DNA of 64,000 nt from sequence record PZ212788.1, one strand, 5' to 3'. Of this stretch, positions 13,779 through 50,586 are shown one piece after another (position 1 is the first letter of the stretch; every line of letters starts with the position of its first letter). This DNA is from a phage. The notes under the pieces were generated by a model. That model was not told the DNA's origin. It made no database searches and saw only the letters and a program-made list of their open reading frames with translations. The translations under genes and the position numbers were made by a program.

Positions 13779-13879
13779 GCCATATTGTTGACCTTGTAAT
13801 TAATCGAAAGCCGGAAGCAGAACCGGATTATCAAATGTTACAGTCGTCATCGCCGACTAGCAACATGGTCAACATACTG

Positions 13880-13976: not shown

Positions 13977-13985
13977 ACCTTTTTT

Positions 13986-14061: not shown

Positions 14062-14062
14062 T

Positions 14063-14137
14063 GGCCCTGTAGCTGGAAGGTTCAAGCAAGCGACTCATAA
14101 TCGCCAGACGGTGGTTCAATTCCACCCAGGGCCACCA
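14063..14137 (+). tRNA. tRNA-Met or tRNA-Ile2 (anticodon CAT)
   Basis: Acceptor GGCCCTG/CAGGGCC, anticodon loop CTCATAA, T arm GTGG-TTCAATT-CCAC, CCA encoded. Confidence 0.7.
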
Positions 14138-14148
14138 AATAATAAATA

Positions 14149-14225
14149 CTCCGCGTAGCTCAGCTTGGTAGAGCGCCTGATTTGGGATCAGGAGGTCGAG
14201 TGTTCGAATCACTCCGTGGAGACCA
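14149..14225 (+). tRNA. tRNA-Pro (anticodon TGG)
   Basis: Acceptor CTCCGCG/CGTGGAG, D arm GCTC-AGCTTGGTA-GAGC, anticodon stem CCTGA/TCAGG with loop TTTGGGA, T arm GAGTG-TTCGAAT-CACTC, CCA encoded. Confidence 0.8.
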
Positions 14226-32871: not shown

Positions 32872-33588
32872 ATGGCTACGCTTTATAGTGATATATTGAT
32901 GGACCCGCAGACAGGCGATTTGGCGATAGACAAAGGTCTTGAGTTGATAGATTCAAACCAGGTAAGTCTGCGCCAGCGCTTGTGGATGAGGTTTAATACG
33001 TGGAAGGGGAGCTGGTACTTTGACGAGCTGTTTGGCTTCCCTTATATGGACTTTCTCAGCAAGAAGGTCATGAAGACTGTTCTTGATAACAAGATCATGG
33101 AAGTGGCAAGACAAGAGCCGGATGTGCTAAACATCATAAACTTCCAGTCTACCATGGACCGAAGATCGAGAACATACCAAGCGTTCTTCGAGGTTGTTAC
33201 CAAAGAGAACGAGATTGTAAGGCTGGCTTTCGTAGGTCTTGATCAGTTCACCTACCCACAGCCTGATTCTGGGACAACCTCTCTCTGTGATGATGAGGGT
33301 TGGATTAAGTGGGCTAATAAACTGTACTATCTGATCAACTTCAGATTGCCTAGAACAGGAGATGCCACATGGTGGAACCAGTATGCTGGCCCTGAGATGG
33401 AAAACCCGATCCCTGTAGGCTCTCTGTTGACTCAGGATAAAGATCTGCTGATGACTGAGGCAGAACAAACCATTAACCGCAATACCTGGACGCTTGCTCC
33501 AGATGAGCGCGAATACTCTGGTGTTATTGCTACCTCCAATGATGAGGCTATTGCCAACCAGTCTGGTCGTGCTATTGATGTTAACTAA
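32872..33588 (+). CDS. baseplate wedge protein (putative)
   Basis: N-terminal DPQTGDLAIDKG-type segment and position after spike. Confidence 0.35.
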   Translation: MATLYSDILMDPQTGDLAIDKGLELIDSNQVSLRQRLWMRFNTWKGSWYFDELFGFPYMDFLSKKVMKTVLDNKIMEVARQEPDVLNIINFQSTMDRRSRTYQAFFEVVTKENEIVRLAFVGLDQFTYPQPDSGTTSLCDDEGWIKWANKLYYLINFRLPRTGDATWWNQYAGPEMENPIPVGSLLTQDKDLLMTEAEQTINRNTWTLAPDEREYSGVIATSNDEAIANQSGRAIDVN

Positions 33589-33597: not shown

Positions 33598-34266
33598 ATG
33601 GCTGTAGCTTATCCTACAATACCAATTCCAGATCTTGAAGATGCAGAAACAGTCCTGAGTGATGACTTCTTGGTTGTCAACCAGACTGATGGGACAAGAA
33701 AGGCTAAGATTGACGATGTTGTCAACGATCTTAGTATTACTAAGATAGTCTATTTCACAGAGGGTGGTTATCTTAAGAGCAAGAAGGACTTTGCTTATGA
33801 CCCAGAGACTAAGCGCTACTACACGTGGAACGGGGATTATCCTAAAATAATCCTCCCAGACTCCACCGTAGAGGGTGCTGGGGGCGTGTCTGCAAATGCC
33901 TGGTCTGTTTTTGGTGAGCTTGCTGCAACTTCTTCTGGCAGAATAGTTGATTACGGATCTATCGGTGGTCAGCTTGATATGGATCTTGAAGTTGCGGATA
34001 CCTTTAAGGTTCGACTAACTTCAAATACCACAATCTCTTTTGAAAATCAAACAGAAGGTCTTGAAGGGGTGGCGAGAACTATAACCGTATGCATTACTCA
34101 GACCTCTGGCGGCAACAAAGTCTATTGGCCTGGTAATGTTAAATGGTCCTACGGAAGAGATCCTATCCTAACATTTACAGCTGGTGCAACAGATATTTTC
34201 AAGTTGGAAACCTACGACAACGGGTTAACTTGGTACGGGGCACTGATTATCGCAGGAGCTATCTAA
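33598..34266 (+). CDS. fibre-anchor domain protein (shares N-terminal domain with fibre 36901..40713)
   Basis: LVVNQTDGTRKAKIDDVV...FTEGGYL...DFAYD paralogous to N-terminus of 36901 gene. Confidence 0.4.
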   Translation: MAVAYPTIPIPDLEDAETVLSDDFLVVNQTDGTRKAKIDDVVNDLSITKIVYFTEGGYLKSKKDFAYDPETKRYYTWNGDYPKIILPDSTVEGAGGVSANAWSVFGELAATSSGRIVDYGSIGGQLDMDLEVADTFKVRLTSNTTISFENQTEGLEGVARTITVCITQTSGGNKVYWPGNVKWSYGRDPILTFTAGATDIFKLETYDNGLTWYGALIIAGAI

Positions 34267-34267
34267 G

Positions 34268-36865
34268 ATGCGTATTCAACATAACATTGATAACGTATTT
34301 CAGATGATTGAGGGGCACAGGAAGTGCCTCGATAACAACACAGGTATTACCAACACCTCTACACAAAATAAGCTAGTAAACCCTGATGGTCTTATAGCTG
34401 CAGGGTGGGCAGGTAATAAGATAAATAATGATTGGGCAATGCATGAGTCCCAAGCTGTGTTGATTCTGGGATACATTGAAGCATACAGGGCATCGAAAAG
34501 CGATTTCTATCTGGATAGGGCAAAAGATGCTTGGGAAGCTTACAATAGCCATCTTCTGGGTGCATATGCAGTAGAAAGTAAAATGCAAAGATTGTCCCAC
34601 TACCCTCTATCCACAGATGGGGTTCCATCACATGGTGGGTTTAAAGATGTGGTGGTGTCTTTTACCAACGGTAGAGGAAAAATCCCAGCTGGATCTCCGA
34701 CATGGGGGGAATACCTTGACAAGGCATTCCAAGCGTATAACGGTGTGTTAGGAAGAAACACTGTAGACTCTGATGTTTACGGTGGCACAGATGCTAACCC
34801 AGATTGGACAACATCCGGATTAAGTTGGTGGGTTGAGTGGTACATAGCATGGGATGGTAACCGCTATTGGGCTAACGGTAGCATAGCCGACAGTGGTCAT
34901 ACGTCTGTAGAGTTCGGCACAATCCAATTACAAGATAAGGGTGTTACAGGCAGCCACAAGGTGACCTATTGTGTAAGATTACCTCAAGAGCAGGGCGGAT
35001 CGGTGATACCTGCAGGATCCCCTGTAATTGTAAATCCTATAAACGTGGTTGCAGATAATCAGGCCCCAGAGTTGGACGGGGAAGAAATGTGGTGTGACGC
35101 TTGTTATCAACTCTACACCTTGACAGGTGAGGAAAAGTATTACACCGCGTTTAAACAGTCTTACAACAAATTGCTTAATTTCAGTGATATAAACGCCTAC
35201 GACAAACTGTTTAGGAAGACCACGTTGATTAAGGCACCGTTTACAGATGGTACTTGCCTTGTTGCAGGAACAGTTCCTGCCATGAGCAGGGACAGTGACG
35301 GGTATATCAATTTTAGAATGAACGCACGCCAGCCTTGCGAAATAATTCAAAAAGGGACTACATACAAAATAGGCAGAGATGCTGAAATTGTTATGAATTT
35401 CGGAGGAGAAGGGGTTCTGTTCCAGCCACATTTCATCCTTAATGATGGCAACAATAACAAAAAACAGTACAGGATAGGGGTTCCTTTTGGAGGGGCAGAG
35501 GTAACAGAAATAGTTGCCAAGGTTACTGATTTCGTAGAGGTAGTTGGTAAAGACGGTAATCCGTATCTCTTACCTAAAGAGGAAAACATTGTCGTAAGCG
35601 GTGGCGCTAGTGTTAGTATGCAGTATGATACCGACATTTACAACCACTCTGACAACTTCACCCGTTGTAATATAGCAAGAGGTAAAGTAACTTTCAATTT
35701 TGGGAGAGAGATTTCTTTAAACTCAGTAACTTATCGATCAGATGATGAGATGGTAAGGGTCAAATTTCTTGACAAAGATAGGTGGTTATGGTATGCTGAT
35801 CTATATGCCACTAATGGACAATGGATAACAGAAACTCTTACTCTAGGAGATTTCAAACTAGATCCGACACAACCTCATCACACCGAAGAAGAGATTAAAC
35901 CTTTCTTTGCTAATCCTAAGGGGCTCACCTCTGTAGATTTCAGCCTAAGCGACAGGCAGATAGGTAATGGCTTGTTTGATCTGTACTGCGTAAACACGCT
36001 GCCGCAGTTCTATATTGCAGATAGGGATGCTTATCTGATCTGGTTTAGCGTATGGATGGCAAGCAAGACAGAATCAACCGCTAAGGTTGGTGATTGCTAT
36101 GTCAGAAACTACAAGCAAGGTGCATACAGGCACACACCAGGTGTGTTCCCTGCCGGAAAGGTGATAGATAAGGAAAACTATCTCTTAGAGGAAAGGCCAA
36201 ATTGGCCCTACCCTGGCATGCAATACCCAGCAGTCTACTGCATGGGTGCAGAAAACATAGATCGCCATAGATTGTCAAATACAATAGGCTTTCTGTATGA
36301 CTCTCAAGTCTGGTATAATAATACGTTTAAGACAGAGGGTCCAGTTGCCTCACGTTATGTATGGCAGAGAGGCAATGAAGGGTTGACTGGTTGGTGGGAG
36401 ATGGTAGATAACTCTAAGCTCCAGTCAAGATCTTTTGTTGCTGCGTGCCGCACAATATATGAGCTCAAGAAACATAAAGAACCTGTTGATGAAAGACTAT
36501 TCCTGTTCTGCCAGAAATGGGCATGGTTCCTCAACAGATTCCAGTCATCTCATTCAGGAAATCTGCCTACAGACTTTAACACCTCTGGGGGATATTCTTA
36601 TCAGGACAGAGGAGACAGGATGTGGGTGGTAGGTGAATGGCTTGCAGGTTGCTGCTGGCTAGGTCTGTGCGGGTATTCAGAGACAATACCTCAAATAGAT
36701 ATTGTTGTGGAAGCCTGTGTGAAGCTACTGCAAAAGCACCACTTCATTAATGGGGATAATATTTTAAACGGCTGCTGGGCAGTTTCTGATCCGGTAGGCT
36801 ATCACTCTGGCGAAATCCTTCGCGGTCTGGGCCTTTATGCTCAATACCGTGGATTGTACCTTTAA
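34268..36865 (+). CDS. large tail/baseplate structural protein (hypothetical)
   Basis: 865-aa Trp/Tyr-rich ORF in tail module. Confidence 0.4.
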   Translation: MRIQHNIDNVFQMIEGHRKCLDNNTGITNTSTQNKLVNPDGLIAAGWAGNKINNDWAMHESQAVLILGYIEAYRASKSDFYLDRAKDAWEAYNSHLLGAYAVESKMQRLSHYPLSTDGVPSHGGFKDVVVSFTNGRGKIPAGSPTWGEYLDKAFQAYNGVLGRNTVDSDVYGGTDANPDWTTSGLSWWVEWYIAWDGNRYWANGSIADSGHTSVEFGTIQLQDKGVTGSHKVTYCVRLPQEQGGSVIPAGSPVIVNPINVVADNQAPELDGEEMWCDACYQLYTLTGEEKYYTAFKQSYNKLLNFSDINAYDKLFRKTTLIKAPFTDGTCLVAGTVPAMSRDSDGYINFRMNARQPCEIIQKGTTYKIGRDAEIVMNFGGEGVLFQPHFILNDGNNNKKQYRIGVPFGGAEVTEIVAKVTDFVEVVGKDGNPYLLPKEENIVVSGGASVSMQYDTDIYNHSDNFTRCNIARGKVTFNFGREISLNSVTYRSDDEMVRVKFLDKDRWLWYADLYATNGQWITETLTLGDFKLDPTQPHHTEEEIKPFFANPKGLTSVDFSLSDRQIGNGLFDLYCVNTLPQFYIADRDAYLIWFSVWMASKTESTAKVGDCYVRNYKQGAYRHTPGVFPAGKVIDKENYLLEERPNWPYPGMQYPAVYCMGAENIDRHRLSNTIGFLYDSQVWYNNTFKTEGPVASRYVWQRGNEGLTGWWEMVDNSKLQSRSFVAACRTIYELKKHKEPVDERLFLFCQKWAWFLNRFQSSHSGNLPTDFNTSGGYSYQDRGDRMWVVGEWLAGCCWLGLCGYSETIPQIDIVVEACVKLLQKHHFINGDNILNGCWAVSDPVGYHSGEILRGLGLYAQYRGLYL

Positions 36866-36900
36866 CATAGGGGGCTGTTTGCCCCCTTTCAGGAGAAAGA

Positions 36901-39900
36901 ATGGCTGATATTAAAGTTGTCAGAATTGAATCTCTTCCTGCCACTACCGCAGTGACAGAGGATGATTACCTGGTTGTTCAACAACCAGACCTGACTCGTC
37001 GTGTAAAAATTGGCGATGTTGTCCATGTGGATGGGACTGTTTCTCATGTAATCTCCTTTAAGGAAGGTGGTAAGTTAAACGGCCCAATGGATTTTGCCTA
37101 CTTCGAAGAGGAAGACCTCTACCTGCGTTGGAAAGGCGAATTTCCACACACTGTTCCTGCACTGTCTTCACCGTACTCCGATGGTGGGATTACTGACGCT
37201 GCATGGATGGTATATACAGATCCGTCCTTAAGGGAGGAGCTGGAATCTACTATTGGCGCATCTATGATCATGACAGCCGAAGGGCAGTCTGTCCAGGATG
37301 TGATGGATGTTACGGTTCAGACAGCTAACGATGCTAAAGCACTTGCACAGCGGGTAGATTTTGGTACAGTACATACTGTAGGCGATGTTATTCACCTTGT
37401 CAACTTTGTGGGTCCTGCAGTTATTGAGGAGGGAAGAACCACCAACTACCCTTCCGTAGCAGCTGGTGAAAGATTTCTGAACGGTGTGGTATCTCGTCGT
37501 GATACTACAACTGTTGATGGTATTTTCCGTGGCGCTACCACCGGAGCCATGTACACCATTGCAGTAACCAACGGTGTAGCAACAACGAAAAGAATAGCAC
37601 TTCGTGATGAATTTAAACGCCTAGAGGCAAACAACCCAACAAGAACAGTTATCCGTGCTGGAGATGATTTAAATACGGCAGGGTACTTGCAGCTTGATGC
37701 AACAGGCCGTTGGGGTATGTGGAACCAACAAACAGCTTCGTGGCAACCTCTTGCTATAGAGCAAGGCGGCACAGGGGCTAGAGATGCCGCTGGAGTCCGT
37801 ATCAATATCGGTGCTTTCTATAAGCAACGTGCAGCCCTTGAGCCAAATTTCAATATCAATAACTTGACTGGTAATCAGGATGGTGTATACTATCAGCCAA
37901 TGACTGCTTATGCAACTGAGGCGAATGGTTACCCTGCAGGTTCTGGTGCGGGTCACTTGATTGTTTGGCAGAACAATGCTAACGGCGGTACAGGTTGTCG
38001 TCAGGAATACTATCCATTCTCTAACGTAGATGTTTGGTATTTGAGAACCTATCAGGCCAACACAAATCAGTGGACTGCATGGCAGCCGATGGTCAGACCT
38101 CGTAACGATGATACCTTCAGATCTCATATTGGCCTTGGTAAAAACAACTCGCCAGCCTTCGGGCACCTTTACTTAGCTCAATACTCGGGAGATGTTAAAT
38201 CGGCCTCAGGTATTCTCCATGGAGATAAATATAATACTGACGGTGTCCTTGAGCATGGATATAGGATCTATTCTGAGGTAAGAAACGACAATAAGGCTTG
38301 GTTGACAATCCACCTGCACAAAGGCGCAAAAGGATCTGAAACTCATAGATATTTAGGCTTCCGTGAGGATGGGGTCTTAGATTGTCCTAAATATATGCAG
38401 GTTGGTGATCTGAACGGTCAGATGGCAAACTGGGGACTTGGAGAATGGATCCGCAGTTCAGGAGCAGAAAGAGGTTTCTGGGGATCTAAGAAAGCCGCCA
38501 AGATGGTCATCTGGGATGGCGGTATGGACGAGCAAGGTGAAGGAACGCTTGAGTGGGGTGTTTATAACAACCGGAAAGCCAAATGGGAACCACTACCGAT
38601 AGCTTGTGGTGGTACCAGTGCCAGGACTGTAGGGGATGCTCAAGCACAATTCAGAATCCCTCTGGCAGCAGGTGCTAGACCATATGTAAACCTGCCTAGA
38701 ACTGCAGCTATGCAGGACGGTAAGTATTATCCTATTATCGTCAGAACTGACCCCAACTTTGCAGCAACTATCGGGACAGATTTAACCATTGTCACCAGAT
38801 CTTCTTCTGGCGGCGACCCAATGAACTGTGCTACACTACAGTGTCACTACAGAACTGGTGGCTGGACAGACAGAGGTGATTCTTTCCAAGGGGTTATTAA
38901 TTTCTACCAAAACGAGAAAGCAATCCTCGGATGTGTATCTCCAACCAGAGGTAAGCAGGAGTATGTTGCATTCTATGTAGAGGCACGTGCATTCCCTGTT
39001 ACAGTATATGCTGGCGCTACTGTAATAGAAGTGTCAACCAGGGAGGCTGATTGGCAGGTAGGCAACGTGACAGGTAACCAAGATGGTGTCAAGTTCTGTG
39101 CTCCTCTGGAATCTGCAGATTTGAGTCTTGCAATCAAAGGTGATGATGTAACAAACACCAGACCTCTGGTTGAGTTCAAAGGAACATCAGGTTTCTACAC
39201 TGGTGGTGGAACTATGTGGCACTACCTGGGGACTCCTGAACGCTATGCAGTGATGAGCAAAATGAACATGCCTAAAGTCGAGCTTTGGGCAGACGGTATT
39301 GACTACATTTGTCCTGGTAGTCAGACCACTAGAAAAGCACTGTTCTCTAACGCAGGGTTCCAAGCTGCATCGGAAGGAACAGAGGATCTGATCAACAACA
39401 CCTTTACCTCTAAATGTGGTAATGGTGCAAGACTGCAAGGCCAGGCAGAGTTCAGATCTACTCCGGAAGCTGGTCAAGTTATCGTTCGCGATGTTGTAGG
39501 TACAGCTCATAAGTTCTACAATTTCAACAAAGACGGCACATTTTTCCCTCCTGGAGGCTATGTTTGCCAGACAGGTGCTGACTGGAACAATCAGTTTGGT
39601 AATACAAACCCCTCCAAGATAATGGCTGGCAATGTCAACGGGCCGGAAGGTTCGATGGTTGTTGGTGGACTGTCTGTGGCGTTTTCTGGAAACTATGCTT
39701 TCCAAATGGCTGGTCGCCTTGATCAGTTATACACTAGGTCTATCGAAGGTGGTAACCATAGGGCATGGAACAAGGTTATTCAGCACCGTGGTCAAGGTCT
39801 GGGGACAGAAGACCTTAATGCCTACGATGGTAGCCGTGAAGGTTTCTATCACCAGGGTTCAAACGCTGACGCACTTGTAACAGATCGTCACTACCCTGCT

Positions 39901-40713
39901 CCGTACGCTGGTACACTGCTTGTTTACAAAAACACAGCTAACAGACCTCAAGGTTGTGTGCAGGAATATATCACCTATTTTGGTGACAGATATACTCGTG
40001 CTGGTAACTACGTTGGCGATGTCTTTACTTGGGAAGAATGGAGACACGATGCTGGTAAGGGCATCCAGTTAAGACCTAATTACACTTTTGGTGAAACCAG
40101 TAATCAACTGGAAATTCATATCGGTGCTAATGGTCTTCCCTCCAACGCAGATGGCTTACCTAAGGATGATGCTGTACTCCATTATTGGGGTAACGGCAGC
40201 ACAGGGGATCGTCCAAACGTGTTAGAGTTTAAGGTTCGTGACGAGTCTCAAGCAAATTGGGTATGGCATTGCGGTACCTTGCCGGATAAATCAAGATATC
40301 TTTCTGTAAACGGTGCTGTGAATTGCACATCTGTCAATCAGAGTTCTGACAGAGACCTGAAAGATAACATAGCTGTTATTCCTGATGCGTTAGAAGCTAT
40401 CCGGAAGATGAAGGGTTATACTTACACTCTTAAAGAGAACGGTATGCCTTATGCAGGTGTTATAGCACAAGAGGTGCTTGAAGCGCTGCCGGAAGCAGTT
40501 AGCTCTTTCGTGCAAAGAAAGGAAATCCCAAACCCTGATCAGGATGGAACTCCTTTAGTAACAGAGGAAAGATTCTACAGCGTGGATTACGCAGCCGTAA
40601 CAGGCTTGCTTGTCCAGGTTTGCAGGGAACAGGACGATAAAATAACCGCCCTTGAGGAGCAGGTTAAAAAATTGACAGAGGTTGTTACTGGGTTGCAAGA
40701 GAAACTTAAGTAA
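36901..40713 (+). CDS. tail fibre protein with C-terminal intramolecular chaperone domain
   Basis: 1270 aa; C-terminus SDRDLKDNIAV...GVIAQEVLEALPEAV...EERFYSVDYAAVTGLL matches auto-cleaving chaperone domain of endosialidase/long tail fibres. Confidence 0.7.
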   Translation: MADIKVVRIESLPATTAVTEDDYLVVQQPDLTRRVKIGDVVHVDGTVSHVISFKEGGKLNGPMDFAYFEEEDLYLRWKGEFPHTVPALSSPYSDGGITDAAWMVYTDPSLREELESTIGASMIMTAEGQSVQDVMDVTVQTANDAKALAQRVDFGTVHTVGDVIHLVNFVGPAVIEEGRTTNYPSVAAGERFLNGVVSRRDTTTVDGIFRGATTGAMYTIAVTNGVATTKRIALRDEFKRLEANNPTRTVIRAGDDLNTAGYLQLDATGRWGMWNQQTASWQPLAIEQGGTGARDAAGVRINIGAFYKQRAALEPNFNINNLTGNQDGVYYQPMTAYATEANGYPAGSGAGHLIVWQNNANGGTGCRQEYYPFSNVDVWYLRTYQANTNQWTAWQPMVRPRNDDTFRSHIGLGKNNSPAFGHLYLAQYSGDVKSASGILHGDKYNTDGVLEHGYRIYSEVRNDNKAWLTIHLHKGAKGSETHRYLGFREDGVLDCPKYMQVGDLNGQMANWGLGEWIRSSGAERGFWGSKKAAKMVIWDGGMDEQGEGTLEWGVYNNRKAKWEPLPIACGGTSARTVGDAQAQFRIPLAAGARPYVNLPRTAAMQDGKYYPIIVRTDPNFAATIGTDLTIVTRSSSGGDPMNCATLQCHYRTGGWTDRGDSFQGVINFYQNEKAILGCVSPTRGKQEYVAFYVEARAFPVTVYAGATVIEVSTREADWQVGNVTGNQDGVKFCAPLESADLSLAIKGDDVTNTRPLVEFKGTSGFYTGGGTMWHYLGTPERYAVMSKMNMPKVELWADGIDYICPGSQTTRKALFSNAGFQAASEGTEDLINNTFTSKCGNGARLQGQAEFRSTPEAGQVIVRDVVGTAHKFYNFNKDGTFFPPGGYVCQTGADWNNQFGNTNPSKIMAGNVNGPEGSMVVGGLSVAFSGNYAFQMAGRLDQLYTRSIEGGNHRAWNKVIQHRGQGLGTEDLNAYDGSREGFYHQGSNADALVTDRHYPAPYAGTLLVYKNTANRPQGCVQEYITYFGDRYTRAGNYVGDVFTWEEWRHDAGKGIQLRPNYTFGETSNQLEIHIGANGLPSNADGLPKDDAVLHYWGNGSTGDRPNVLEFKVRDESQANWVWHCGTLPDKSRYLSVNGAVNCTSVNQSSDRDLKDNIAVIPDALEAIRKMKGYTYTLKENGMPYAGVIAQEVLEALPEAVSSFVQRKEIPNPDQDGTPLVTEERFYSVDYAAVTGLLVQVCREQDDKITALEEQVKKLTEVVTGLQEKLK

Positions 40714-40720: not shown

Positions 40721-40747
40721 GCCCTCGCTTCGGCGGGGGCTTTTTGT
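40721..40747 (+). terminator. rho-independent terminator
   Basis: GCCCTCGC-TTCG-GCGGGGGC hairpin followed by TTTTTG. Confidence 0.65.
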
Positions 40748-40752
40748 TTGTA

Positions 40753-40812: not shown

Positions 40813-41403
40813 ATGTTTTTATGGGAAAGGCCTAGATACCTTCCAGATATTAGATTAGAGCTGCTGGCAGATATTGTTACGTTTAAAAGTCCGTTTACAG
40901 GTAAAACGCAAAAAGTAACCTATGCCACACCTAACTGGAAAGGCACTTTGACGGTCTCCAATATCAGCGAATCCCAGTTGCTAGAGCTTAAGAGCTTTGT
41001 TGATCAGGTGTATAAAGATGGGAACATCTTTCTCATTAAAACTTACGGTCACTCAGTAACAGCTAATGAGCCAATCGCCCTTGGGCCTACTGGTAACGAC
41101 GATTTTTTGAAGACGGTCGGGTGGGAGCCAAACAGAGACATAGCCAGAGCTGGAGATAAAATATCTGTCAATGATGAATTGAAAGTGGTAACAGCTCCAG
41201 TGCGTAGTGATGGTGTTGGGTCTGCTGTTATAGGCATATCTCCAAGACTTAGAAAACCTATTGCCGCAGGGGACACCATGAAGATAATAACTCAATCTCC
41301 GAAGGGTAGGTTTCATATCAGAGATATTTATAAAATTAAGCAAAAAGTCGATGCTATGCAAAAAGGTGATAATATAGTTATCAACTTCTTTGAGGATTTC
41401 TAA
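40813..41403 (+). CDS. baseplate/distal tail protein (hypothetical)
   Basis: 196-aa ORF with GGAGG RBS. Confidence 0.35.
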   Translation: MFLWERPRYLPDIRLELLADIVTFKSPFTGKTQKVTYATPNWKGTLTVSNISESQLLELKSFVDQVYKDGNIFLIKTYGHSVTANEPIALGPTGNDDFLKTVGWEPNRDIARAGDKISVNDELKVVTAPVRSDGVGSAVIGISPRLRKPIAAGDTMKIITQSPKGRFHIRDIYKIKQKVDAMQKGDNIVINFFEDF

Positions 41404-41404
41404 G

Positions 41405-41956
41405 ATGATCAGAGCGCCATTAGATAATTTATTTCTTGAAAAGCTGGAGCTTGATGGTGTTGAGATCTTAATTGCTGCAAAGCTGGAGCTACCGACAGGA
41501 ACTGTCAGGGTGTGCTCAGGCACTGGTGTTGTAGTAATTGAGGGGCAACATTTTATAGGGATAGGTGGATCAGCAACATTGACCGCTGTGTCTGAGAAAG
41601 ATGCCACCAACTTCGGATCTGTGGTAGCAACATTGAACGGGTTTGATCCTAAGTATGTAGGTGATCTGCTGAAGACGGAGTATTCTGGTTGTCGTGCCAC
41701 GTTGTACATTACCGCTATGGAGAATGGTTTGCCTGTTACAACTAATGGCTTGTTTGACGGACTTATAACAGATATGGCTATTCAGACAGGCGAGAATAGT
41801 GCTTTGTCCATATCCATCTCTTCCATCTTCAACAGCTGGTTAAGAGGTTTTCCTTATCGGTACACGGAGGAAAGCCACAGCTCAAGAAACGATAACGACA
41901 GATTTTTTAAATATGTGGATCAGGTGGCGAGCCGCCCGATCATTTGGGAGGTTTAA
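41405..41956 (+). CDS. baseplate/tail-tip protein (hypothetical)
   Basis: GAGGA RBS before ATG 41405. Confidence 0.35.
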   Translation: MIRAPLDNLFLEKLELDGVEILIAAKLELPTGTVRVCSGTGVVVIEGQHFIGIGGSATLTAVSEKDATNFGSVVATLNGFDPKYVGDLLKTEYSGCRATLYITAMENGLPVTTNGLFDGLITDMAIQTGENSALSISISSIFNSWLRGFPYRYTEESHSSRNDNDRFFKYVDQVASRPIIWEV

Positions 41957-42381
41957 TGAGCACACACCCTCGTTTAGTGGATTGGCAAGAAAGATTGTGG
42001 AAAGTGTTTGACGAAGAGGCCACCATACCTTTTGAATGGGGATTCCACGATTGTTGCACCTTTGCAGCTAAGTGTGTTGATGCCCAATACGGAACAGATT
42101 TTCTTTCTAACTTTGAAGGAACGTATAAAACAGAGTTGGAAAGCAAGAGATGGTGCATGCTTCATTTCAAAACCACACATCTGCCCACTATTTTTGATTT
42201 CTTTATGACTCGACTGGACACTCCTAAACAGGTTCAGCGTGGTGATATTGTTATTTTCGAAGGCCTGAACGGGCTCACCGCTGGTGTGTTCTGGAACAAC
42301 CAGATTTGGGCGAAAGGGGATAAAGGGGTCTTTATGTTCGACATGAAAGATTCTATCGTTGTTGATGTCTGGAGGTATTAA
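41956..42381 (+). CDS. tail-associated protein with cysteine-peptidase-like motif (putative cell-wall hydrolase)
   Basis: FHDCCTF and GDIVIFEG segments resemble NlpC/P60/CHAP-type motifs; weak. Confidence 0.3.
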   Translation: MSTHPRLVDWQERLWKVFDEEATIPFEWGFHDCCTFAAKCVDAQYGTDFLSNFEGTYKTELESKRWCMLHFKTTHLPTIFDFFMTRLDTPKQVQRGDIVIFEGLNGLTAGVFWNNQIWAKGDKGVFMFDMKDSIVVDVWRY

Positions 42382-45300
42382 TGCCAATTGCAATGATTGA
42401 TAACATCGTTGCTTCTGCAAGATCTTCAAGTTATGACTGGAACGCATCCAAGGCAGCTCTGGCTGACAGCCTGAACACTGTTACCACCAGAACTCTGGAT
42501 AAGATTTTTGAGGGCAACAAATCTTACAGAAGTCAGCAAGATAGACAAAAGCTTCTCAGATCTTCTGCTGCACCTTGCTCTGTAGTGTATGGGAAGACAC
42601 GCACATCTGGATTACTTGCGTTTTTGGAGCAGGACAGGGACAGGACCCTCCATTGTGCTATTGTTCTTGCCAATCATCCCCTGGAAGGTATAGAAGATAT
42701 ACTCATCGACGGTAATCCTATTTCCTCGTATGGAGATTTGATATCGTGGGAGCTACATAACGACAGAAAAACATCTGATCCTTTCATGGGTACACACTGC
42801 CCGTCGTGGTCACCAGACATGATAGGTAGAGGGATCAGTTGGCTACGTGCCAGCTTCAGGTTTGACCCTAACAAGTTCCCTTTTGGGTTGCCAAACGTTA
42901 CACTCGTCAAGGTTGGTAAAAAATGCTATGATCCTCGTATCAGTAAAGAGGTGTATACCAATAACGCGGCCTTGGTGATTCTAGACTATTTAAGAACGTA
43001 CCTTAAATGTCCTGACGAAACCATCAACTGGGAGTCCTTCAAGGAGGCTGCTAACATATGCGATGAGGCGGTAAGAAACGCGGACGGAACTAGTGAGCGC
43101 CGTTACACCATTAATGGTGAGTTCGATATGGATGAGGCCCCAGCAAGTATTATGGCAGAAATGCTGAAAGCTTGTGGTGCAGATCTCAGCTATGTAGCTG
43201 GTAAGTATGGACTGCTGGTAGGTGCATATTATGGTCCGGCAACAATGACACTGAGTGAGGACTGTGTCTGTGGTGAGGTTAAGATCTATCCGGAAGCCTC
43301 GTTTGACAAAAGATCCAACACAATAACTGGCAGATTCACCAGTCCGACTAAAGGGTATTCTGAAACAGATTTTCCATCAGTATTTGTCCCAGAGTGGATA
43401 GAGAAGGATGGAGAAAGAAAGATAATCGATATAGACTACCGCTTTGTTACCAGTCCTTACCAAGCTCAGCGTGTTTCTGCAATCTTCTTAAGACGTGCTA
43501 GAGCTGGCAGGATTATTGAAGTCACCTGCAATATGCGAGGTTTTAAATTTAAGCCTGGTAGTTACGTTACAATGGACCTTCCAAGTATTGGTATAGTGGG
43601 CCAAGAAATGAGGGTTCTTGAGTGGGAGTTCACTAAAAAGGGTGGTGTTAAGGTAAAACTTCGCCAAGATGCTAAAGAGTGGAATGATGCCACAGGGCAA
43701 CTTCCTGATTCCGGCGATGTAGATATTCCGATATCCCCGTCCGGTGTAGCTCAACCGCAAAACTTCAGATACTCCGTTCTCCAAGCTGGGGAAGTAACTC
43801 ACGGTGTTTTGGCTTGGGACAACGTTGGAACTTACGCTCAAAATATTGTGCAGGTAAGAAAGAACGGAGAGATTGTTTGGACAGCACAGACAGTTGAGCA
43901 GTTTGTCCGAGTAGAAGGCTTGACCAAAGGGTCATACACAGCAACCGTGGTTGCAACATCTTATAAAGGTGGTGTATCTCCAGAAGCCTACTGCGAGTTC
44001 AACATTCAAGCACCTGAAGCTCCTGTTTCTGTAGAAGTTAAGCAGGGATACTTTGCTATCACCTTGATTCCGCATAGTAGGGATTTAGCAAGTGTTAGCA
44101 CCCAGTATGACTTTTGGACATCCGGTATGACAAGGTTGCCAGACACCAGTGATGCAACCGTTACTTCAAAAGCCACCCGTATGGGTGTTGGTTCAACTTG
44201 GACATCTGAAGGTCTGCAGAACGATAAGATTTATTATTGGTATATTAGAACCACAAACGCTTTTGGTAGTTCTCAGTTTGTAGAATGCGCTGCACGCTGC
44301 TACACCTCTATTGAGGATTTGATGCCTCAGATAGATGCTGAATTCAAAAAGACAGAAACTTATAAAGAGTTGATGAGTACTTTGGATTCCTCTATTGAAG
44401 AGGTTGAAAATCGTGTCACAGAACTTAACAGGTACATGGATGGTAGGGTAGATGAAGCGTTCCAGCAACTTGGGGACAGAATAGGTGCGGTAGTTACAGA
44501 AACAACTCAGAAGTTTGAAGATGTCAATGGTAACATTACAGCGCTGGATAGGAAACTTGTTGCTGCACAGAACAAATTCACCAACGATCTGAACACTGAA
44601 AGTGGCAGACTGGCATCTCTGATCGAGACAACCAATAAAGCAACTACTGATCTTCTGAACAAAAAGACAGAGGCTTTAGATGAGAAATTGGTTGCCGCCA
44701 AAGGTGAGCTGGTAGAGCAGATAGAGGGAGTTGAGAGCGGGTATTTAGCCGGAGATAAAACTCTGGATGGTAAGATCAATACTCAGAGAACAGAACTTGA
44801 CGCAAGCATCTTGAGCACTAACCAGGCAACTGTGGATCTTTTGAACAGGACATCTGAAACTCTGGATCAAAAGATCAGTCAGACAAACGCGACGGTATCT
44901 AAAAACTATACCACCCTGGATGGCAAGATAACCACCGCAAAAACTGACCTCAACACCTTGATTGCCAATACCAACAAGGCCACCACTGACTTGTTGAATC
45001 AGAAAACATCTGCACTGTCAGAGCAGATAACTTCTGCACGTGGGGAGATTTCTACCAACAAGCAGGCGATTGATGCTTTGGATGGAAAACTGACTTCCAC
45101 AAAAACAGCGCTGGATGCTACAATTTCCGATACCAACAAAGCTACTGTGGACCTTATCAACGGCACAGCGTCAGCTATTCGTCAAGAACTTGCTGTTGCT
45201 AAGCAGGAGATCATTGATGATGTTGGGGATGTGTCCGAAATCAGGGCTGCAGTAGCTACAACATCTAAGGCTGTAACCGACTTAGAGGGTAAAGTAAATG

Positions 45301-46220
45301 CTCAATGGGGCACAAAAATACAGGTAGACTCCGCAGGGAATAAATATGTTGCAGGTATCCAGTTGGGGATGGAAGGGTCTGGAGGCCAAGTTCAATCCTA
45401 CTTCATGGTTAGTGCAAACAATTTTGCGGTATACAACCCTGGAAATGGAACAGCAACCCTTGCTTTCGCAATCAAGAACAACCAAGCGTTCTTGAAAGAT
45501 GCTTTTATAGAGAACGGGACGATTTCATCTGCCAAGATCGCACAAGAAATTTCGTCAAACAACTACGATGGCAACGGGTACCATAAATACGGTTGGTATA
45601 TTAACAAGAACGGGCACGCCCAATTTATGGATGTATGGGTGAAAGGCAACATCAACGCCAGTTCTGGTAACTTCACAGGGGCAGTTAACGCCACTAGTGG
45701 TACCTTCCGTGGGGATGTTTATGCCAATAATGGTAGCTTTAGGGGCACCATAGATGCAACTGGAGGTACCTTCCGTGGACGTGTAGAAGCTTCCGTTATC
45801 CGTGCTAACCAGTTCGAAGGTGCAATCGTTGCACATAGGACCTACGGTGACTGTTCTCCAGTGTACAACTCGCAGCAAAGGGTTTGCCGTTGGAGGTGGA
45901 GATATGTGGACAACGTGCAAGGCCAAGGTAAGAACGTAACATTCTTCTTTAAACTGAATGGTACTCTTGCCAGCTCACAACTGAATGCATGGATAGCTGG
46001 TCATCAGATCCTTGCTGGCAAGAAGTATTTTAACGACAACAACGGCATGTGTGCGGTAGGGATAACAGGTCTGGGTGAACAAACTATAGACATTGTTATC
46101 GAGATTTACACACCGTGGTCAACGTCTAGCGTGACAGGTGTCACAATCTCCTGTCCTACTGTGATCGTTAGTCGTTCTAACTCAAGCTTCCAGGGACCTT
46201 GGAACGAGTCTCACGACTAA
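42381..46220 (+). CDS. large tail fibre/baseplate protein with FN3-like region, tandem coiled-coil repeats and Gly-rich C-terminal repeats
   Basis: 1279 aa; repeated NKATTDLLNKKTEALDEKL-type units; C-terminal repeated G(T/S)FRG. Confidence 0.5.
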   Translation: MPIAMIDNIVASARSSSYDWNASKAALADSLNTVTTRTLDKIFEGNKSYRSQQDRQKLLRSSAAPCSVVYGKTRTSGLLAFLEQDRDRTLHCAIVLANHPLEGIEDILIDGNPISSYGDLISWELHNDRKTSDPFMGTHCPSWSPDMIGRGISWLRASFRFDPNKFPFGLPNVTLVKVGKKCYDPRISKEVYTNNAALVILDYLRTYLKCPDETINWESFKEAANICDEAVRNADGTSERRYTINGEFDMDEAPASIMAEMLKACGADLSYVAGKYGLLVGAYYGPATMTLSEDCVCGEVKIYPEASFDKRSNTITGRFTSPTKGYSETDFPSVFVPEWIEKDGERKIIDIDYRFVTSPYQAQRVSAIFLRRARAGRIIEVTCNMRGFKFKPGSYVTMDLPSIGIVGQEMRVLEWEFTKKGGVKVKLRQDAKEWNDATGQLPDSGDVDIPISPSGVAQPQNFRYSVLQAGEVTHGVLAWDNVGTYAQNIVQVRKNGEIVWTAQTVEQFVRVEGLTKGSYTATVVATSYKGGVSPEAYCEFNIQAPEAPVSVEVKQGYFAITLIPHSRDLASVSTQYDFWTSGMTRLPDTSDATVTSKATRMGVGSTWTSEGLQNDKIYYWYIRTTNAFGSSQFVECAARCYTSIEDLMPQIDAEFKKTETYKELMSTLDSSIEEVENRVTELNRYMDGRVDEAFQQLGDRIGAVVTETTQKFEDVNGNITALDRKLVAAQNKFTNDLNTESGRLASLIETTNKATTDLLNKKTEALDEKLVAAKGELVEQIEGVESGYLAGDKTLDGKINTQRTELDASILSTNQATVDLLNRTSETLDQKISQTNATVSKNYTTLDGKITTAKTDLNTLIANTNKATTDLLNQKTSALSEQITSARGEISTNKQAIDALDGKLTSTKTALDATISDTNKATVDLINGTASAIRQELAVAKQEIIDDVGDVSEIRAAVATTSKAVTDLEGKVNAQWGTKIQVDSAGNKYVAGIQLGMEGSGGQVQSYFMVSANNFAVYNPGNGTATLAFAIKNNQAFLKDAFIENGTISSAKIAQEISSNNYDGNGYHKYGWYINKNGHAQFMDVWVKGNINASSGNFTGAVNATSGTFRGDVYANNGSFRGTIDATGGTFRGRVEASVIRANQFEGAIVAHRTYGDCSPVYNSQQRVCRWRWRYVDNVQGQGKNVTFFFKLNGTLASSQLNAWIAGHQILAGKKYFNDNNGMCAVGITGLGEQTIDIVIEIYTPWSTSSVTGVTISCPTVIVSRSNSSFQGPWNESHD
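44570..45200 (+). repeat. in-frame tandem repeats encoding coiled-coil heptad units
   Basis: At least four imperfect copies of about 120 nt (TNKATTDLLN.KT..L...). Confidence 0.5.
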
Positions 46221-46325: not shown

Positions 46326-47816
46326 GTGGCTAAGTATGGATTGACAGAGGCTGGTTTCGTTATACCAACCCTAAATGACCTAATCGTTGAAACTAAGCAA
46401 AGCCTGATCCGTGCTTTTGGCGAAAACTTCAACGTACAGAGTAACTCCGTTGCAGATAAGCTGACCACTATCTTCAACGAGCGAGAGTATCAACTTATTC
46501 TTATGGCAGCATCTGTATACGCATCACAGACGCTGTATGGGGCAGAAGGTATCTACCTAGATGAGCTTCTTGGAAGACAGGGTATTTACCGAAGAGGCCG
46601 TTCTAAATCATCAGGTACCTGCCAGTTGACAATCAACACAACTGTGCCGTACAATATGATTTATGATTCCAAAACTTATACGCTGGACAGTGGCAACTTT
46701 GTTCTTAGCAACGATGTGCAAGTAGCAGGGAATCTTATTGCTCACAGAATAAATGCTCCAGACCTAAGGATTGGGAAATACAACTTCCAAATTACCAACC
46801 AGACAGATGGAAGTATCAAAACAAAAAGTCTGGTTTTAACAGATAAGTCTCTGGACTCTTCTGATTTGCCAAGCTTTTACGGAGAGATTAAGCAATTCAT
46901 TGTCGATAATACAACCCTGTTGAACGACGATTTGATTCAGGTCGATATGTTGACAGGAACGTTGTGGATAGGGTACAATTCGAATCTTGATCAAGTTGGA
47001 CTTAATAGTAGAGTAGATTTCAGAGTATCCCCGATTGTAGGGGAAAGAACTATCACCCTGGATGTTATCGCTAACGAGGCTGGTGAGCTGTCAAGAGAGG
47101 CAGAAACCGTGACAACAATGTCACCTACTCCCAGTGGATTTATCAAGCTTACCAACCGAGAAAGATTCAACGAGGGCAGGGATGTTGAGAAAGATTCCGA
47201 GTATCGCTTAAGAGCTTCCAGCACAAAACAGTTAACATCGAAGGCTACCCGTCCTGCAATCCTTAGCGCTGTAAGCGAGGTGAAAGGTGTTGAGAAAGTG
47301 AGAGTGTTCTCCAACAACACTGATAAAACTGATGCTAAAGGTATACCTCCTTACAAGTTCCAAGTGGTTGTGTTTGGTGGTGCAACGGAGGACATTTGCC
47401 AAGCACTTTACCAAACTATAGCCTGTACGAACAGGACTTATGGTAATATTTTCTACGATGTCACTACATCTGACGGTCAAACTGAAAGAATTTATTACTC
47501 CAAGGCAAATACCTACCGCCTAGATGTAAGAATTACCTATTCCGGCGCTGCGCTTTCCACAACCGAAAAAGATGCCATTGTAGAGGCTCTTTTGCAGGTT
47601 GTTAACGGACTGGATGTTGCAGATACGTTGTACAATATCCAATTGGTCGGTGCTGCATCCGCTGCTGTGTCGATAGGTAGATTTAATAGACTGGTAATTC
47701 AAGTTAAACCAGTAGGAGCTTCTGATGAAGCTTACACTACAAACGATATTGTTGCGAACATGACCGAGGTGTTTGACCTCGACGAAAGTAATATAACTTT
47801 CCAACAAACTATTTAA
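46326..47816 (+). CDS. baseplate J-like protein (putative)
   Basis: GTG start with GGAGGAG RBS; N-terminus YGLTEAGFVIPTLNDLIVETKQSLIRAFGENF resembles baseplate J/gp6 family. Confidence 0.5.
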   Translation: MAKYGLTEAGFVIPTLNDLIVETKQSLIRAFGENFNVQSNSVADKLTTIFNEREYQLILMAASVYASQTLYGAEGIYLDELLGRQGIYRRGRSKSSGTCQLTINTTVPYNMIYDSKTYTLDSGNFVLSNDVQVAGNLIAHRINAPDLRIGKYNFQITNQTDGSIKTKSLVLTDKSLDSSDLPSFYGEIKQFIVDNTTLLNDDLIQVDMLTGTLWIGYNSNLDQVGLNSRVDFRVSPIVGERTITLDVIANEAGELSREAETVTTMSPTPSGFIKLTNRERFNEGRDVEKDSEYRLRASSTKQLTSKATRPAILSAVSEVKGVEKVRVFSNNTDKTDAKGIPPYKFQVVVFGGATEDICQALYQTIACTNRTYGNIFYDVTTSDGQTERIYYSKANTYRLDVRITYSGAALSTTEKDAIVEALLQVVNGLDVADTLYNIQLVGAASAAVSIGRFNRLVIQVKPVGASDEAYTTNDIVANMTEVFDLDESNITFQQTI

Positions 47817-47827: not shown

Positions 47828-48514
47828 ATGGCAGAGATTAAGTCGGATGTTAACCACATCCACACTCTGCCAGATTTTGTTCAGGGAGGTCTTGACTACC
47901 TGCCTGGAGATTTTCTGGCTGAGAAGGTTAATTTAGTCACATTCTTAACCGTATACCTTAAAAGGTTGGAGGATGTTGATAAGATGCTGGTAGGTTTGGC
48001 TGAAGGAAGATTGCTTAACAATGCCAGCGGAAGATACCTTGACGAAGTTGGTAATCAACTTGGTATTCTTAGGAATGGACTTTCAGATGCTGATTTTCGT
48101 GCCACACTAATTATTCAGCAGGCCGCAGCATCAAGGGGCGGGACTCGCGAAGATGTCATCTCCACCTTGCGACAATTGTTCGGAAGAGACAATTTCGATA
48201 CGTGGAAAGGAGACAACTTCAGGTTTGACATAAATATTAGAAAAACTTGCTTTGACATATTGCAGTCTATCGATCAGATCTTAGATATGCTACCATTGCC
48301 TTGTCATTTGCGTCTTACAGAATCGCAAGGGCAAGCTTTTGGTTTTGAAGGGGACTCTACAGCTCTTGGCTTCGGATCAGTATGGGAAGAAAACCAGTTT
48401 GGAGTTGGTGGGCTGGCTACTTTGCTGTATGTTCCTGACGTAAGACCTGATTGGGACACCACAACCATTTATTGTGAAAGTATTACAGTAAACGCAACTA
48501 GACAGGAGGGTTAA
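47828..48514 (+). CDS. baseplate/tail protein I-like (putative)
   Basis: Follows J-like gene; LDYLPGDF motif. Confidence 0.4.
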   Translation: MAEIKSDVNHIHTLPDFVQGGLDYLPGDFLAEKVNLVTFLTVYLKRLEDVDKMLVGLAEGRLLNNASGRYLDEVGNQLGILRNGLSDADFRATLIIQQAAASRGGTREDVISTLRQLFGRDNFDTWKGDNFRFDINIRKTCFDILQSIDQILDMLPLPCHLRLTESQGQAFGFEGDSTALGFGSVWEENQFGVGGLATLLYVPDVRPDWDTTTIYCESITVNATRQEG

Positions 48515-50586
48515 TGGCAACAGCTGTTTTTAAACCTTACCGTGATTACTCTACAATGGCTGCACGGTTTCATTACCGAACAGTTCAGGATACTGCCGTT
48601 CCTGGTAGGGATTATGATCATGTTGAGGGCGATGTAACTATCCCAGTTGGGGCAACCAGTATTGAGATCCCCGTGGAAATTGTTGACAAATTACCCAACA
48701 GGTTGCCAAGAAGCTTCTTTATGGAGTTTTCATCAAAATCTCAAGGGGTGATGATTGGAACACAAAGGGCGAAATGTACAATAGTTTCAGATGAGAATCT
48801 TGACAGGATATCTTGGGATACTGTTGAGGAGAGAATGTTTCACCCAAGATATTGGGTTACAACCACTCAGCAGACTGAAAGTACCTGTATTGTTGCAGAT
48901 AACAACTGTTGTATTAACCGTTTAGTGTCAAGAACATATGGAGGTATGGCTGGGTGCATTTGGGAAACAGTTGACAAGTATGACCATTTCGGTATTGGGT
49001 TTGATGATCACTATGAGATGAGAAACACCAAGCTTTGGTTCAGAATGTCAATAACCAATGCCAGCAACTTCTCCACCCCTGAAAAGATGATTATGACTGT
49101 AGACCTTGTTGATGGCACAATCATCTATGTTCCTTTAGCTCAATATGCTGTCAGCATCTCAGAGGATAAGAATGTTGCAGAGATTCATATTGATTTCGAG
49201 GACTGCGTCGGGATGGATCAGAACAACAACATGATGGGTGTTGATCCTCGACAGGTGAGAAGGATTTTAATACCGCTTATGCCTAAAGACTGGGTAAGTA
49301 ATAGCACAGACCCGAGAACGGAAAATGTAGAGTGTGAGTTGCGCCTAGATCTGCTCCAGCCAGACACAGGCTGGAAAATGATGCAACTTAACAATATTCA
49401 GGTTAAAGAGCACGACGTTGGGATCTGCACCGCATATGACGATATGTGGAACGTATCTCCTTTAAGGGTGTTGAACAATATCAAGCGTCTGGGCTATACC
49501 GGAACCATAAACCATTATGTTGGTATGAGTCATTATTATGACTACACATGGTCAGGAACCCAATGGTCTATAAACAGAACAGGGGCGCTAAACGCTGCAG
49601 CTTATAAATGGCATGATGATTTTATGTACAATGCCAAACGACATAACTTCGACGTTATGCAATCTGTAAGTTTTGAGCTTTTCAGCGATGCCTGCCCGTT
49701 GGAATGGACCCAAAGAGACTGGAACGATAACTACGCTAAAACAGGGTATACACCCTGTAGCTACCTCCTGTCTCCAACCATTGAAGAGGGTATGAATTTC
49801 CTTACTGCAGTATTTAAGAATTTTGCATCAGCCGCTATGAGAAACAACCTGCCAGTGATTATGCAGGTTGGTGAACCGTGGTGGTGGTACAATACCGATA
49901 CTCGTAGACCTTGTATTTATGATTACCCTACAAAGCAGGCGTTTTATGATGAGACAGGTGAGTATGCATTAGATATTGGGACTATTGACGATCCTAAAAC
50001 TGGCGGTGTTTACGACAAGTATGTAGCATTTTGTCGTGGTAAGCTTGGCGCTCGTATTGCGGCTATTTCAAAGGCAATAAAGGCACACGCTGCATCAGCT
50101 CAGATGACAGCTTTGCTGTTTTTCCCAACCATCATGGAAACCGAGCTTACGCAAAAGCTGAACCTTGCTGACCAATATAAAAAGGAAGCAGGTGCTCTTG
50201 ATTTCTTCTGCACCGAGTGCTACGATTGGGTGATGCAGGGAGGTATTGAAAAGGCAAAAGAGTCTGTAAACATACCTATCGTTAAGTTAGGTTGGCAACC
50301 GTCTGAAATACAATACCTTGCAGGGTTCGTTCCTAGTAAAGAGCTTGCTCCGGTATATGGCTACGACCCAACCAGGAATTACCAAGAATTTTTATGGAGA
50401 TGTATCTGCGGAAACATGGCAACCATAGAGTATAGATACCCTGAGGTAAAACAGTATGTGTGGGCATACCCGCAAGTAATGTCTGACAGCATCACTGTTA
50501 CAGCCAGAGATTCTACCGTGCTTCATATGGGGCAGGTTGCTCTGAAAGGGTATGTAGAAGATGTTGTCCCTCCAGACTTCTCATAA
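48514..50586 (+). CDS. tail fibre/receptor-binding protein with Calx-beta-like N-terminal segment
   Basis: DYDHVEGDVTIPVGATSIEIPVEIVD resembles Calx-beta motif; Trp-rich C-terminal domain. Confidence 0.4.
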   Translation: MATAVFKPYRDYSTMAARFHYRTVQDTAVPGRDYDHVEGDVTIPVGATSIEIPVEIVDKLPNRLPRSFFMEFSSKSQGVMIGTQRAKCTIVSDENLDRISWDTVEERMFHPRYWVTTTQQTESTCIVADNNCCINRLVSRTYGGMAGCIWETVDKYDHFGIGFDDHYEMRNTKLWFRMSITNASNFSTPEKMIMTVDLVDGTIIYVPLAQYAVSISEDKNVAEIHIDFEDCVGMDQNNNMMGVDPRQVRRILIPLMPKDWVSNSTDPRTENVECELRLDLLQPDTGWKMMQLNNIQVKEHDVGICTAYDDMWNVSPLRVLNNIKRLGYTGTINHYVGMSHYYDYTWSGTQWSINRTGALNAAAYKWHDDFMYNAKRHNFDVMQSVSFELFSDACPLEWTQRDWNDNYAKTGYTPCSYLLSPTIEEGMNFLTAVFKNFASAAMRNNLPVIMQVGEPWWWYNTDTRRPCIYDYPTKQAFYDETGEYALDIGTIDDPKTGGVYDKYVAFCRGKLGARIAAISKAIKAHAASAQMTALLFFPTIMETELTQKLNLADQYKKEAGALDFFCTECYDWVMQGGIEKAKESVNIPIVKLGWQPSEIQYLAGFVPSKELAPVYGYDPTRNYQEFLWRCICGNMATIEYRYPEVKQYVWAYPQVMSDSITVTARDSTVLHMGQVALKGYVEDVVPPDFS

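Follow-up and report, generated by a model that had tools for sequence, protein, structure and literature searches.

Phages of the rV5 group, whose complement of fibres is unusually large, are employed for the typing and biocontrol of pathogenic Escherichia coli. Sequence record PZ212788.1, a stretch of 64,000 nucleotides (nt) that was analysed as a whole and is called the window below, belongs to a Vequintavirus, that is, to an rV5-like myophage infecting E. coli. A cassette of three genes in the window raises a question of attachment and maturation: why do a protein of 222 amino acids (aa) and a fibre of 1270 aa begin with related N-termini, and what becomes of the chaperone domain with which the fibre ends? 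The answer that we consider probable is that the two proteins are different appendages with one N-terminal attachment module, the longer being a fibre with a self-cleaving S74 chaperone. The three open reading frames (ORFs) are orthologous to gp43, gp42 and gp41 of rV5, with the same lengths and order.

33598-34266, + strand: 222-aa ORF, most likely a short spike protein (N-terminal motif, head domain and C-terminal knob); corresponds to rV5 gp43, bas59_0024 and bas54_0025
34268-36865, + strand: 865-aa ORF, a virion protein resembling (alpha/alpha)6-barrel glycosidases, without the N-terminal motif; corresponds to rV5 gp42, bas59_0025 and bas54_0026
36901-40713, + strand: 1270-aa ORF, lateral (L-shaped-type) tail fibre precursor, 99.1% identical to Bas59; corresponds to rV5 gp41, bas59_0026 and bas54_0027

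A shared N-terminus and an S74 fibre had been proposed for this locus in a sequence-only reading. Both features are real and correctly located, their interpretation is right in outline, and they are largely published for this genus. Kropinski et al. (2013) described a K1F-chaperone-like C-terminus with a coiled coil (PCOILS) in rV5 gp41 and a P22-tailspike-like N-terminus in gp43, together with virion mass spectrometry, and their Table S3 lists gp41 as 'L-shaped tail fiber protein; PF13884 Peptidase_S74'. Piya et al. (2020) placed pfam13884 at residues 1151-1200 of rV5 gp41 and reported an LL12 gp41 without it. The GenBank note on gp49 of phage PVP-SE1 reads 'similar to rV5 gp43 at N-terminus'. 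The reduction of the shared element to 48 residues, and the link that it makes between phi92 gp140 and the endosialidase EndoN92, were not found stated in the literature; they are a small refinement.

A shared N-terminal module

The proposed paralogy of the first 110 or so residues of the two proteins is upheld by direct comparison, and both ORFs lie where they had been placed. A BLASTP alignment covers 99 aa (residues 8-105 against 7-105) with 38% identity, 55% positives and E = 3e-18. When either N-terminus was compared by phmmer with all 439 window ORFs of at least 50 aa, the other protein was the sole match (E 4e-17 and 2e-18). No third carrier of the module was found in the window by this search, in which the next best hits had E values of 0.09-0.5, or with the motif profile described below. 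With 41 and 40.6 bits, both proteins also exceed the gathering threshold of 25 bits for Tail_spike_N (PF18668). The homology therefore stands, but the single anchor domain of about 110 residues does not: the shared region comprises a terminal motif of about 48 residues, followed by a generic tailspike head domain.

33598-33741, + strand: candidate N-terminal docking motif, short protein residues 1-48 (48-position profile, alignment)
33748-33912, + strand: Tail_spike_N head domain, short protein residues 51-105 (PF18668, E 2.1e-10; PDB sequence matches to Sf11 gp13 and CBA120 TSP3/TSP4)
36901-37401, + strand: probable attachment module of the long fibre, residues 1-167 (motif 1-47, Tail_spike_N 46-103, neck)

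The head is familiar from solved structures. In a PDB sequence search, the head (D2) region of many solved tailspikes, among them Sf11 gp13, CBA120 TSP1/3/4 and 4QNL, aligned with residues ~50-140 in the long protein and with residues 52-108 in the short one (best E 1e-10). The matching region begins at residue 67-150 in these tailspikes; a separate attachment segment therefore precedes the head there. The short segment ahead of the head in the window proteins was captured in a hidden Markov model (HMM) of 48 positions, built solely from the window pair and the PVP-SE1 pair. Among 1384 ORFs, the motif HMM matched phi92 gp140 (E 1.3e-11) and phi92 gp143 (E 6.3e-9), with the next best match at 0.84. 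The motif also occupies residues 1-50 in 20 of 20 further database proteins of 110-1481 aa. The bodies behind it are varied: beta-helix spikes are among them, as are two S74 fibres (617 and 988 aa). Because the motif alone also marks the equivalent pairs in phi92 and PVP-SE1, it is probably a docking element, behaving like a portable attachment peptide.

These matches bear on the suggestion that the similarity reflects a widespread tailspike head domain only and says nothing of shared attachment. Tail_spike_N does occur in many unrelated tailspikes. However, the similarity of the two window proteins extends through residues 1-48, outside the Pfam domain, and this segment alone identifies the headless phi92 pair, which makes the suggestion quite improbable.

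Parallels in other phages indicate how such a segment may work. Residues 4-59 of Sf11 gp13 form a bundle together with a helix from the distal tail protein, residues 2-41 of Pa223 gp52 grip the capsid, and the heads of CBA120 TSP1 and TSP3 bind TSP4 and TSP2, as shown by ultracentrifugation. From these cases we infer that the window phage carries two appendages, presumably trimeric, in which the ~48-residue motif would dock, probably at the baseplate periphery, and be followed by the Tail_spike_N head.

The gene ahead of the cassette (window 32872-33588) encodes a sheath-initiator-like protein of 238 aa, the last ~34 residues of which are specific to Vequintavirus, relatives matching residues 1-204 only. 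In phiTE, the N-terminal bundle of the long fibre is joined by the C-terminal helix of the sheath initiator, which makes the tail of the 238-aa protein a candidate socket.

Whether one socket would serve both proteins can be approached through their conservation. Codons 1-150 of the long fibre show 10-16 nucleotide differences and 0-1 amino-acid changes, with 100% aa identity to rV5. The short protein is identical at 222 of 222 residues in the window, rV5, Bas49 and Bas54, and its first 115 residues are at least 99% identical across 118 records. By these comparisons, codons 1-150 and the short protein are under purifying selection. All Vequintavirus and Seunavirus records carry the module twice. 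Given this number and the near-invariance of each copy, the duplication is old and the copies are constrained separately.

Competition of both proteins for one socket, giving virions with a mixture or with one or the other, would be in keeping with the homology of motif and head along their whole length and with the lack of a third carrier in the window. Yet the N-termini are just 38% identical while each is almost invariant among Vequintaviruses, a pattern of separate constraint that would fit two distinct, co-evolved sockets better than one shared site. Moreover, both proteins are present in rV5 virions, and the phi92 structure (2026) has three fully occupied six-fold fibre sets. Competition is thus unlikely, and two appendages that share a module but attach at separate places remain the preferred arrangement.

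The short protein and the middle gene

Behind its module the short protein carries a single further domain, which was identified from an AlphaFold 2 (AF2) model.

33934-34263, + strand: C-terminal beta-sandwich knob, residues 113-222 (AF2 model)

The C-terminal 110 residues are modelled confidently (predicted local distance difference test, pLDDT, ~90) as a beta-sandwich, for which no model in the Pfam copy used gave a match. An exhaustive search returned 3413 relatives, in which the knob mostly forms the last ~100 residues of small proteins and is in some cases repeated in very large ones. Its profile matches the C-terminal end of phiTE gp215 and, marginally, the C-termini of PVP-SE1 gp41 and phi92 gp151; a resemblance of gp140 and gp151 to the Pa223 spike was noted independently by the phi92 authors. 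Because the knob family habitually lies distally in fibres and spikes, the 222-aa protein is most likely a short spike, possibly with a glycan-binding tip, and not an adaptor. In such a spike the module would be joined directly to the beta-sandwich knob.

As an adaptor, the 222-aa protein would plug into the baseplate and hold the 865-aa protein with its C-terminal domain, comparable to the K1-5/K1E adaptor and CBA120 TSP4-N. The neighbouring gene supplies most of the argument for this. All of gp41, gp42 and gp43 were detected in rV5 virions by mass spectrometry (Kropinski et al., 2013), yet the 865-aa protein and its orthologue gp42 have no attachment motif. The 865-aa gene starts 1 nt after the stop of the 222-aa gene, the corresponding genes of PVP-SE1 and phi92 overlap by one base as annotated, and the order of the gene triad is kept in three genera (window/rV5, PVP-SE1 and phi92). 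Structure comparison also tentatively places CBA120 TSP4-N, with its gp10/gp9-like XD1 beta-sandwich, and a T4 gp9-type baseplate protein among the neighbours of the knob. On the other hand, the matching XD1 module of TSP4 is described as a spacer with no binding site, and the knob family occupies distal C-termini, in the Pa223 capsid spike as well as in the proteins named above. Furthermore, no homologue of the 865-aa protein fused to a plug or knob was found, the longer homologues (P0008-P0010) sharing its N-terminus without a plug. We regard the adaptor as rather doubtful and retain the short spike. Neither of two distant knob-domain proteins has an adjoining gp42-like gene, which gives no support to a general pairing of knob and glycosidase.

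The 865-aa gene, unmentioned in the sequence-only reading, is conserved in synteny between the short and long genes. Its product has a six-hairpin barrel fold like that of (alpha/alpha)6-barrel glycoside hydrolases (GH; GH8, GH88, GH105 or GH76-like); no sequence-level match to any GH family was found. The protein can be called glycosidase-like by its fold, and its enzymatic role is putative. In the proposed scheme it would be a plug-less virion protein.

A mosaic fibre

Beyond the module, the long fibre divides into a shaft, a tip and a chaperone, and an alternative allele occurs in related phages.

37402-40047, + strand: shaft, residues 168-1049, common to T5-like L-shaped fibres and Queuovirinae-type side fibres
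40048-40344, + strand: variable distal tip, residues 1050-1148, presumed receptor-binding region, ending at the predicted scissile bond between Ser1148 and Ser1149
40345-40710, + strand: Peptidase_S74 intramolecular chaperone, residues 1149-1270 (Ser1149, Lys1154, C-terminal heptad-repeat helix)
phage nomo (L006 2501-7272) and Bas49 (L008 4248-9016): alternative fibre allele, in which a lectin-like tip replaces tip and chaperone

In tblastn comparisons, residues 168-1265 find counterparts in T5-like Salmonella phages at 33% identity (E 2e-145), Seunavirus proteins have residues 1-134 alone in common with the fibre, and siphophages of the Queuovirinae and Dhillonvirus types have shorter internal or C-terminal pieces in common with it. 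As far as these matches tell, the long fibre is clearly a mosaic. Compared with rV5 gp41, residues 1-150 are 100% identical, whereas parts of the shaft reach just 64-66% and residues 1051-1100 just 32%; from residue 1101 to the end, identity is again 96-100%. Allelic differences are concentrated in residues 551-750 and 951-1100. The identity profile and the mosaic matches together therefore define four parts: module 1-167, shaft 168-1049, tip 1050-1148 and chaperone 1149-1270. The fibre would accordingly be built of the shared module, a shaft of the T5 L-shaped-fibre type, a hypervariable tip and an S74 chaperone.

Two alleles of the long fibre exist in Vequintavirus, one of the full-length type and one, found in nomo and Bas49, that shares residues 1-1049 only. 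Past residue 1049 the nomo/Bas49 allele continues with ~430 residues of another sequence, which weakly match a ConA-like lectin. It lacks the S74 domain, and an extra 110-aa ORF downstream possibly encodes a separate chaperone in place of the intramolecular one. In Bas54 growing on E. coli K-12, transposon insertions in bas54_0026 and bas54_0027 are tolerated, whereas some lateral fibre genes are conditionally essential on clinical isolates. Since the orthologue of the long fibre tolerates insertions on K-12, the fibre is an accessory host-range device and not a structural necessity.

The chaperone domain and its predicted cut

The intramolecular chaperone had been placed at about position 40340, which is accurate: residue 1149, with which the domain begins, corresponds to nucleotide 40345. 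In a profile search, residues 1149-1200 match Peptidase_S74 (PF13884) with 51.9 bits, where 22 are required (E 9e-14), and no other fibre-locus protein of the window carries the domain. It covers the last 122 residues of the fibre and opens with the sequence SDRDLKDN (S1149-D-R-D-L-K1154). In an alignment with S16 gp37 (6F45), NVSSDRRIKKDI stands opposite NQSSDRDLKDNI. Within the last 26 residues a heptad pattern, I-L-V-L-V-L-L, is seen in DDKITALEEQVKKLTEVVTGLQEKLK.

Processing at the serine that precedes DRDLKDN had also been predicted, and the S-x4-K spacing, as in T5 pb1 and phi92 EndoN92, lends it support. In T5 pb1 the Thr1263-Ser1264 bond is cut, Ser1264 being activated by Lys1269, and the serine leaves with the chaperone. 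The phi92 record gives the mature EndoN92 peptide as 2-756 and its C-terminal domain (CTD) as 757-918, and residue 757 opens SDGTLK (Ser757/Lys762). Because a pairwise BLAST comparison of the chaperone domain with the EndoN92 CTD was not significant (E 0.22), the link between these two rests on the common Pfam profile and the SDxxLK motif. By analogy, a cut is predicted between Ser1148 and Ser1149, which would yield a mature fibre of 125.8 kDa and a fragment of 13.6 kDa. The chaperone would aid trimer folding and then cleave itself off by means of Ser1149 and Lys1154, and its release would expose the receptor-binding tip. For T5 pb1, an uncleaved domain masks the receptor site, and the processed fibre alone blocks infection in a competition assay.

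A fibre on which the S74 domain is kept uncleaved has in its favour that the virion peptide table of rV5, with 8 gp41 peptides (8.1% coverage, all within residues 434-1073), holds no direct proteomic evidence for the cut. The serine and the lysine are intact, however, and residues 1101-1270 are conserved at the level given above. In addition, RBPseg (2025), a study that deals with this class of fibre, reports for RBP_11, the S74-bearing fibre of Bas54, that cryo-EM density is missing at the peptidase domain. The assignment of RBP_11 and RBP_10 to their orthologues is indirect and relies on how long the genes are and which type of C-terminus they have in Bas54 and Bas49: bas54_0027, with 1272 aa and a C-terminus of the S74 type, and bas49_0026, with 1478 aa, no SDRDLK and the 110-aa ORF behind it, fit the RBPseg description. 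Together with the masking effect known from T5, these observations make retention of the domain on the mature fibre very improbable, and self-cleavage is the reading that we keep.

Counterpoints and implications

Several points weigh against the account of two appendages with a common docking module and a cleaved chaperone. The AF2 model gives the N-terminal half of the short protein a pLDDT below 50, with five sequences covering it, and allows no structural conclusion on the plug. More generally, no structure places residues 1-110 of either protein. The high-resolution phiTE baseplate is not transferable, since phiTE lacks the whole triad, and the phi92 study left both fibre II and the arm of fibre I unassigned. 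As to the cut, the rV5 gp41 peptides all lie before the site, yet such a distribution is ~45% likely by chance at 8% coverage and hence uninformative.

These points notwithstanding, the motif common to phi92 gp140 and EndoN92 bears on the unassigned fibres of the 2026 phi92 structure. As a tentative extension, possible but somewhat short of probable, we propose that the motif is a dedicated plug for a conserved baseplate socket in Vequintavirinae and Stephanstirmvirinae, into which each phage mounts a knob-bearing short spike and an exchangeable receptor-binding protein. If this is true, rV5 gp41 occupies the place that fibre I (EndoN92) has in phi92, the gp140-gp141 pair (equivalent to gp43-gp42 of the window) becomes a candidate for the unassigned arm of fibre I or for fibre II, and a defined junction becomes available for swapping receptor-binding proteins. 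Host-range mapping and engineering would likewise be helped by knowing the attaching residues, the exchangeable tip from about residue 1050 and the cut between Ser1148 and Ser1149.

Genomic setting and other features of the window

The cassette lies directly downstream of baseplate hub, spike and sheath-initiator-like genes. Two hairpins accompany it.

36869-36887, + strand: 7-bp hairpin, GC-rich, in the gap that separates the 865-aa gene from the 1270-aa gene, with UUUC and an AGGAG ribosome-binding site after it
40721-40750, + strand: strong intrinsic terminator (8-bp stem, 7 GC pairs, T-run after it), directly 3' of the fibre gene, ending the cassette

The first hairpin has an RNA folding energy of -15.1 kcal/mol (z = -2.2) and, on this prediction, could damp read-through into the fibre gene.

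An 8-kb query spanning the cassette matched 124 phage records. The top match was Escherichia phage EduardKellenberger (Bas59, Vequintavirus), with 98.4% identity over 100% of the query; rV5 was ~94% identical. Between 18 and 25 GenBank records of the MG0656xx series (e.g., MG065646 and MG065661) are named 'Campylobacter phage', with Campylobacter jejuni as host, and are 94-100% identical to the coliphage cassette; these host labels look doubtful.

Further along, window 40813-46220 holds a siphovirus-type tail-tip module inside the myovirus baseplate locus. The module encodes a Dit-like protein (196 aa), a tail protein (188 aa), a protein with a cell wall hydrolase annotation (145 aa) and a lambda-J-like protein (1279 aa) with Phage_Tail_Tip and Ig_J domains; two of the genes are dispensable in Bas54. 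PVP-SE1 and phi92 have wedge genes directly at the corresponding position instead, and phiTE is also without the module. The wedge proteins of the window are encoded at 46326-47816 and 47828-48514. A 690-aa protein (window 48514-50586) matches the TIM-barrel and N-terminal domains of the N4-type 'non-contractile tail sheath' (E 4e-80); the BASEL paper links the deacetylase-type fibre, to which this protein type belongs, to recognition of the enterobacterial common antigen. The largest gene of the fibre locus (window 55779-61406) encodes a protein of 1875 aa with a Big_2 Ig-like domain near its C-terminus and with neither docking motif nor S74. Seven tRNA genes lie at window 13412-14225, including one 99-nt call (13881-13979) with a four-base anticodon, 'atcc', and no amino acid assigned.

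Comparison with known systems

The closest relatives of the cassette are those of Bas59 and rV5. Identity is 100% for the 222-aa protein; for the 1270-aa protein it is 99.1% (Bas59) or ~87% (rV5). The shaft, tip and S74 chaperone of the window fibre have homologous counterparts in T5 pb1 and in fibres from T5-like Salmonella phages, and the spacing of the Ser/Lys dyad is equal. T5 pb1 differs at the other end: the T5-like matches start at residue 168, and residues 1-167 of the window fibre are a different module, presumably for a myovirus baseplate and not for a siphovirus tail.

The Tail_spike_N head is homologous in CBA120 TSP1-4 and in G7C gp63.1/gp66, systems in which several receptor-binding proteins likewise share an attachment logic. 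The CBA120 heads mediate attachment to other trimeric modules, whereas the segment ahead of the head in the window proteins is a different and shorter motif, and no XD2/XD3 docking domains of the CBA120 type were detected in window proteins. Pa223 gp52 and Sf11 gp13 are short trimeric appendages with an N-terminal attachment segment of 40-60 residues, and Pa223 gp52 also has a C-terminal knob. They differ in attaching to the capsid or to a siphovirus distal tail protein. In addition, Sf11 uses N-terminal helices, whereas the window motif looks beta-rich and contains proline. The phiTE baseplate was considered as a template for the socket and rejected: its structural region has neither a gp43-gp42-gp41 triad nor a motif carrier.

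Equivalent cassettes are present in PVP-SE1 and phi92. That of PVP-SE1 consists of gp51 (224 aa), gp50 (929 aa) and gp49 (712 aa), with the motif in gp51 and gp49. In phi92 the order is gp140 (157 aa), gp141 (958 aa), an inserted gp142 and then the endosialidase gp143 (EndoN92). The phi92 cassette differs from that of the window in three respects: its pair has no Tail_spike_N head, gp140 being the motif directly joined to the knob and gp143 the motif plus the endosialidase; it has the extra gp142; and its third protein is an endosialidase instead of a fibre. Nevertheless, phi92 follows the same triad logic, with a short motif-plus-knob protein, a large gp42-like protein and a motif-bearing receptor-binding protein that ends in an S74 chaperone.

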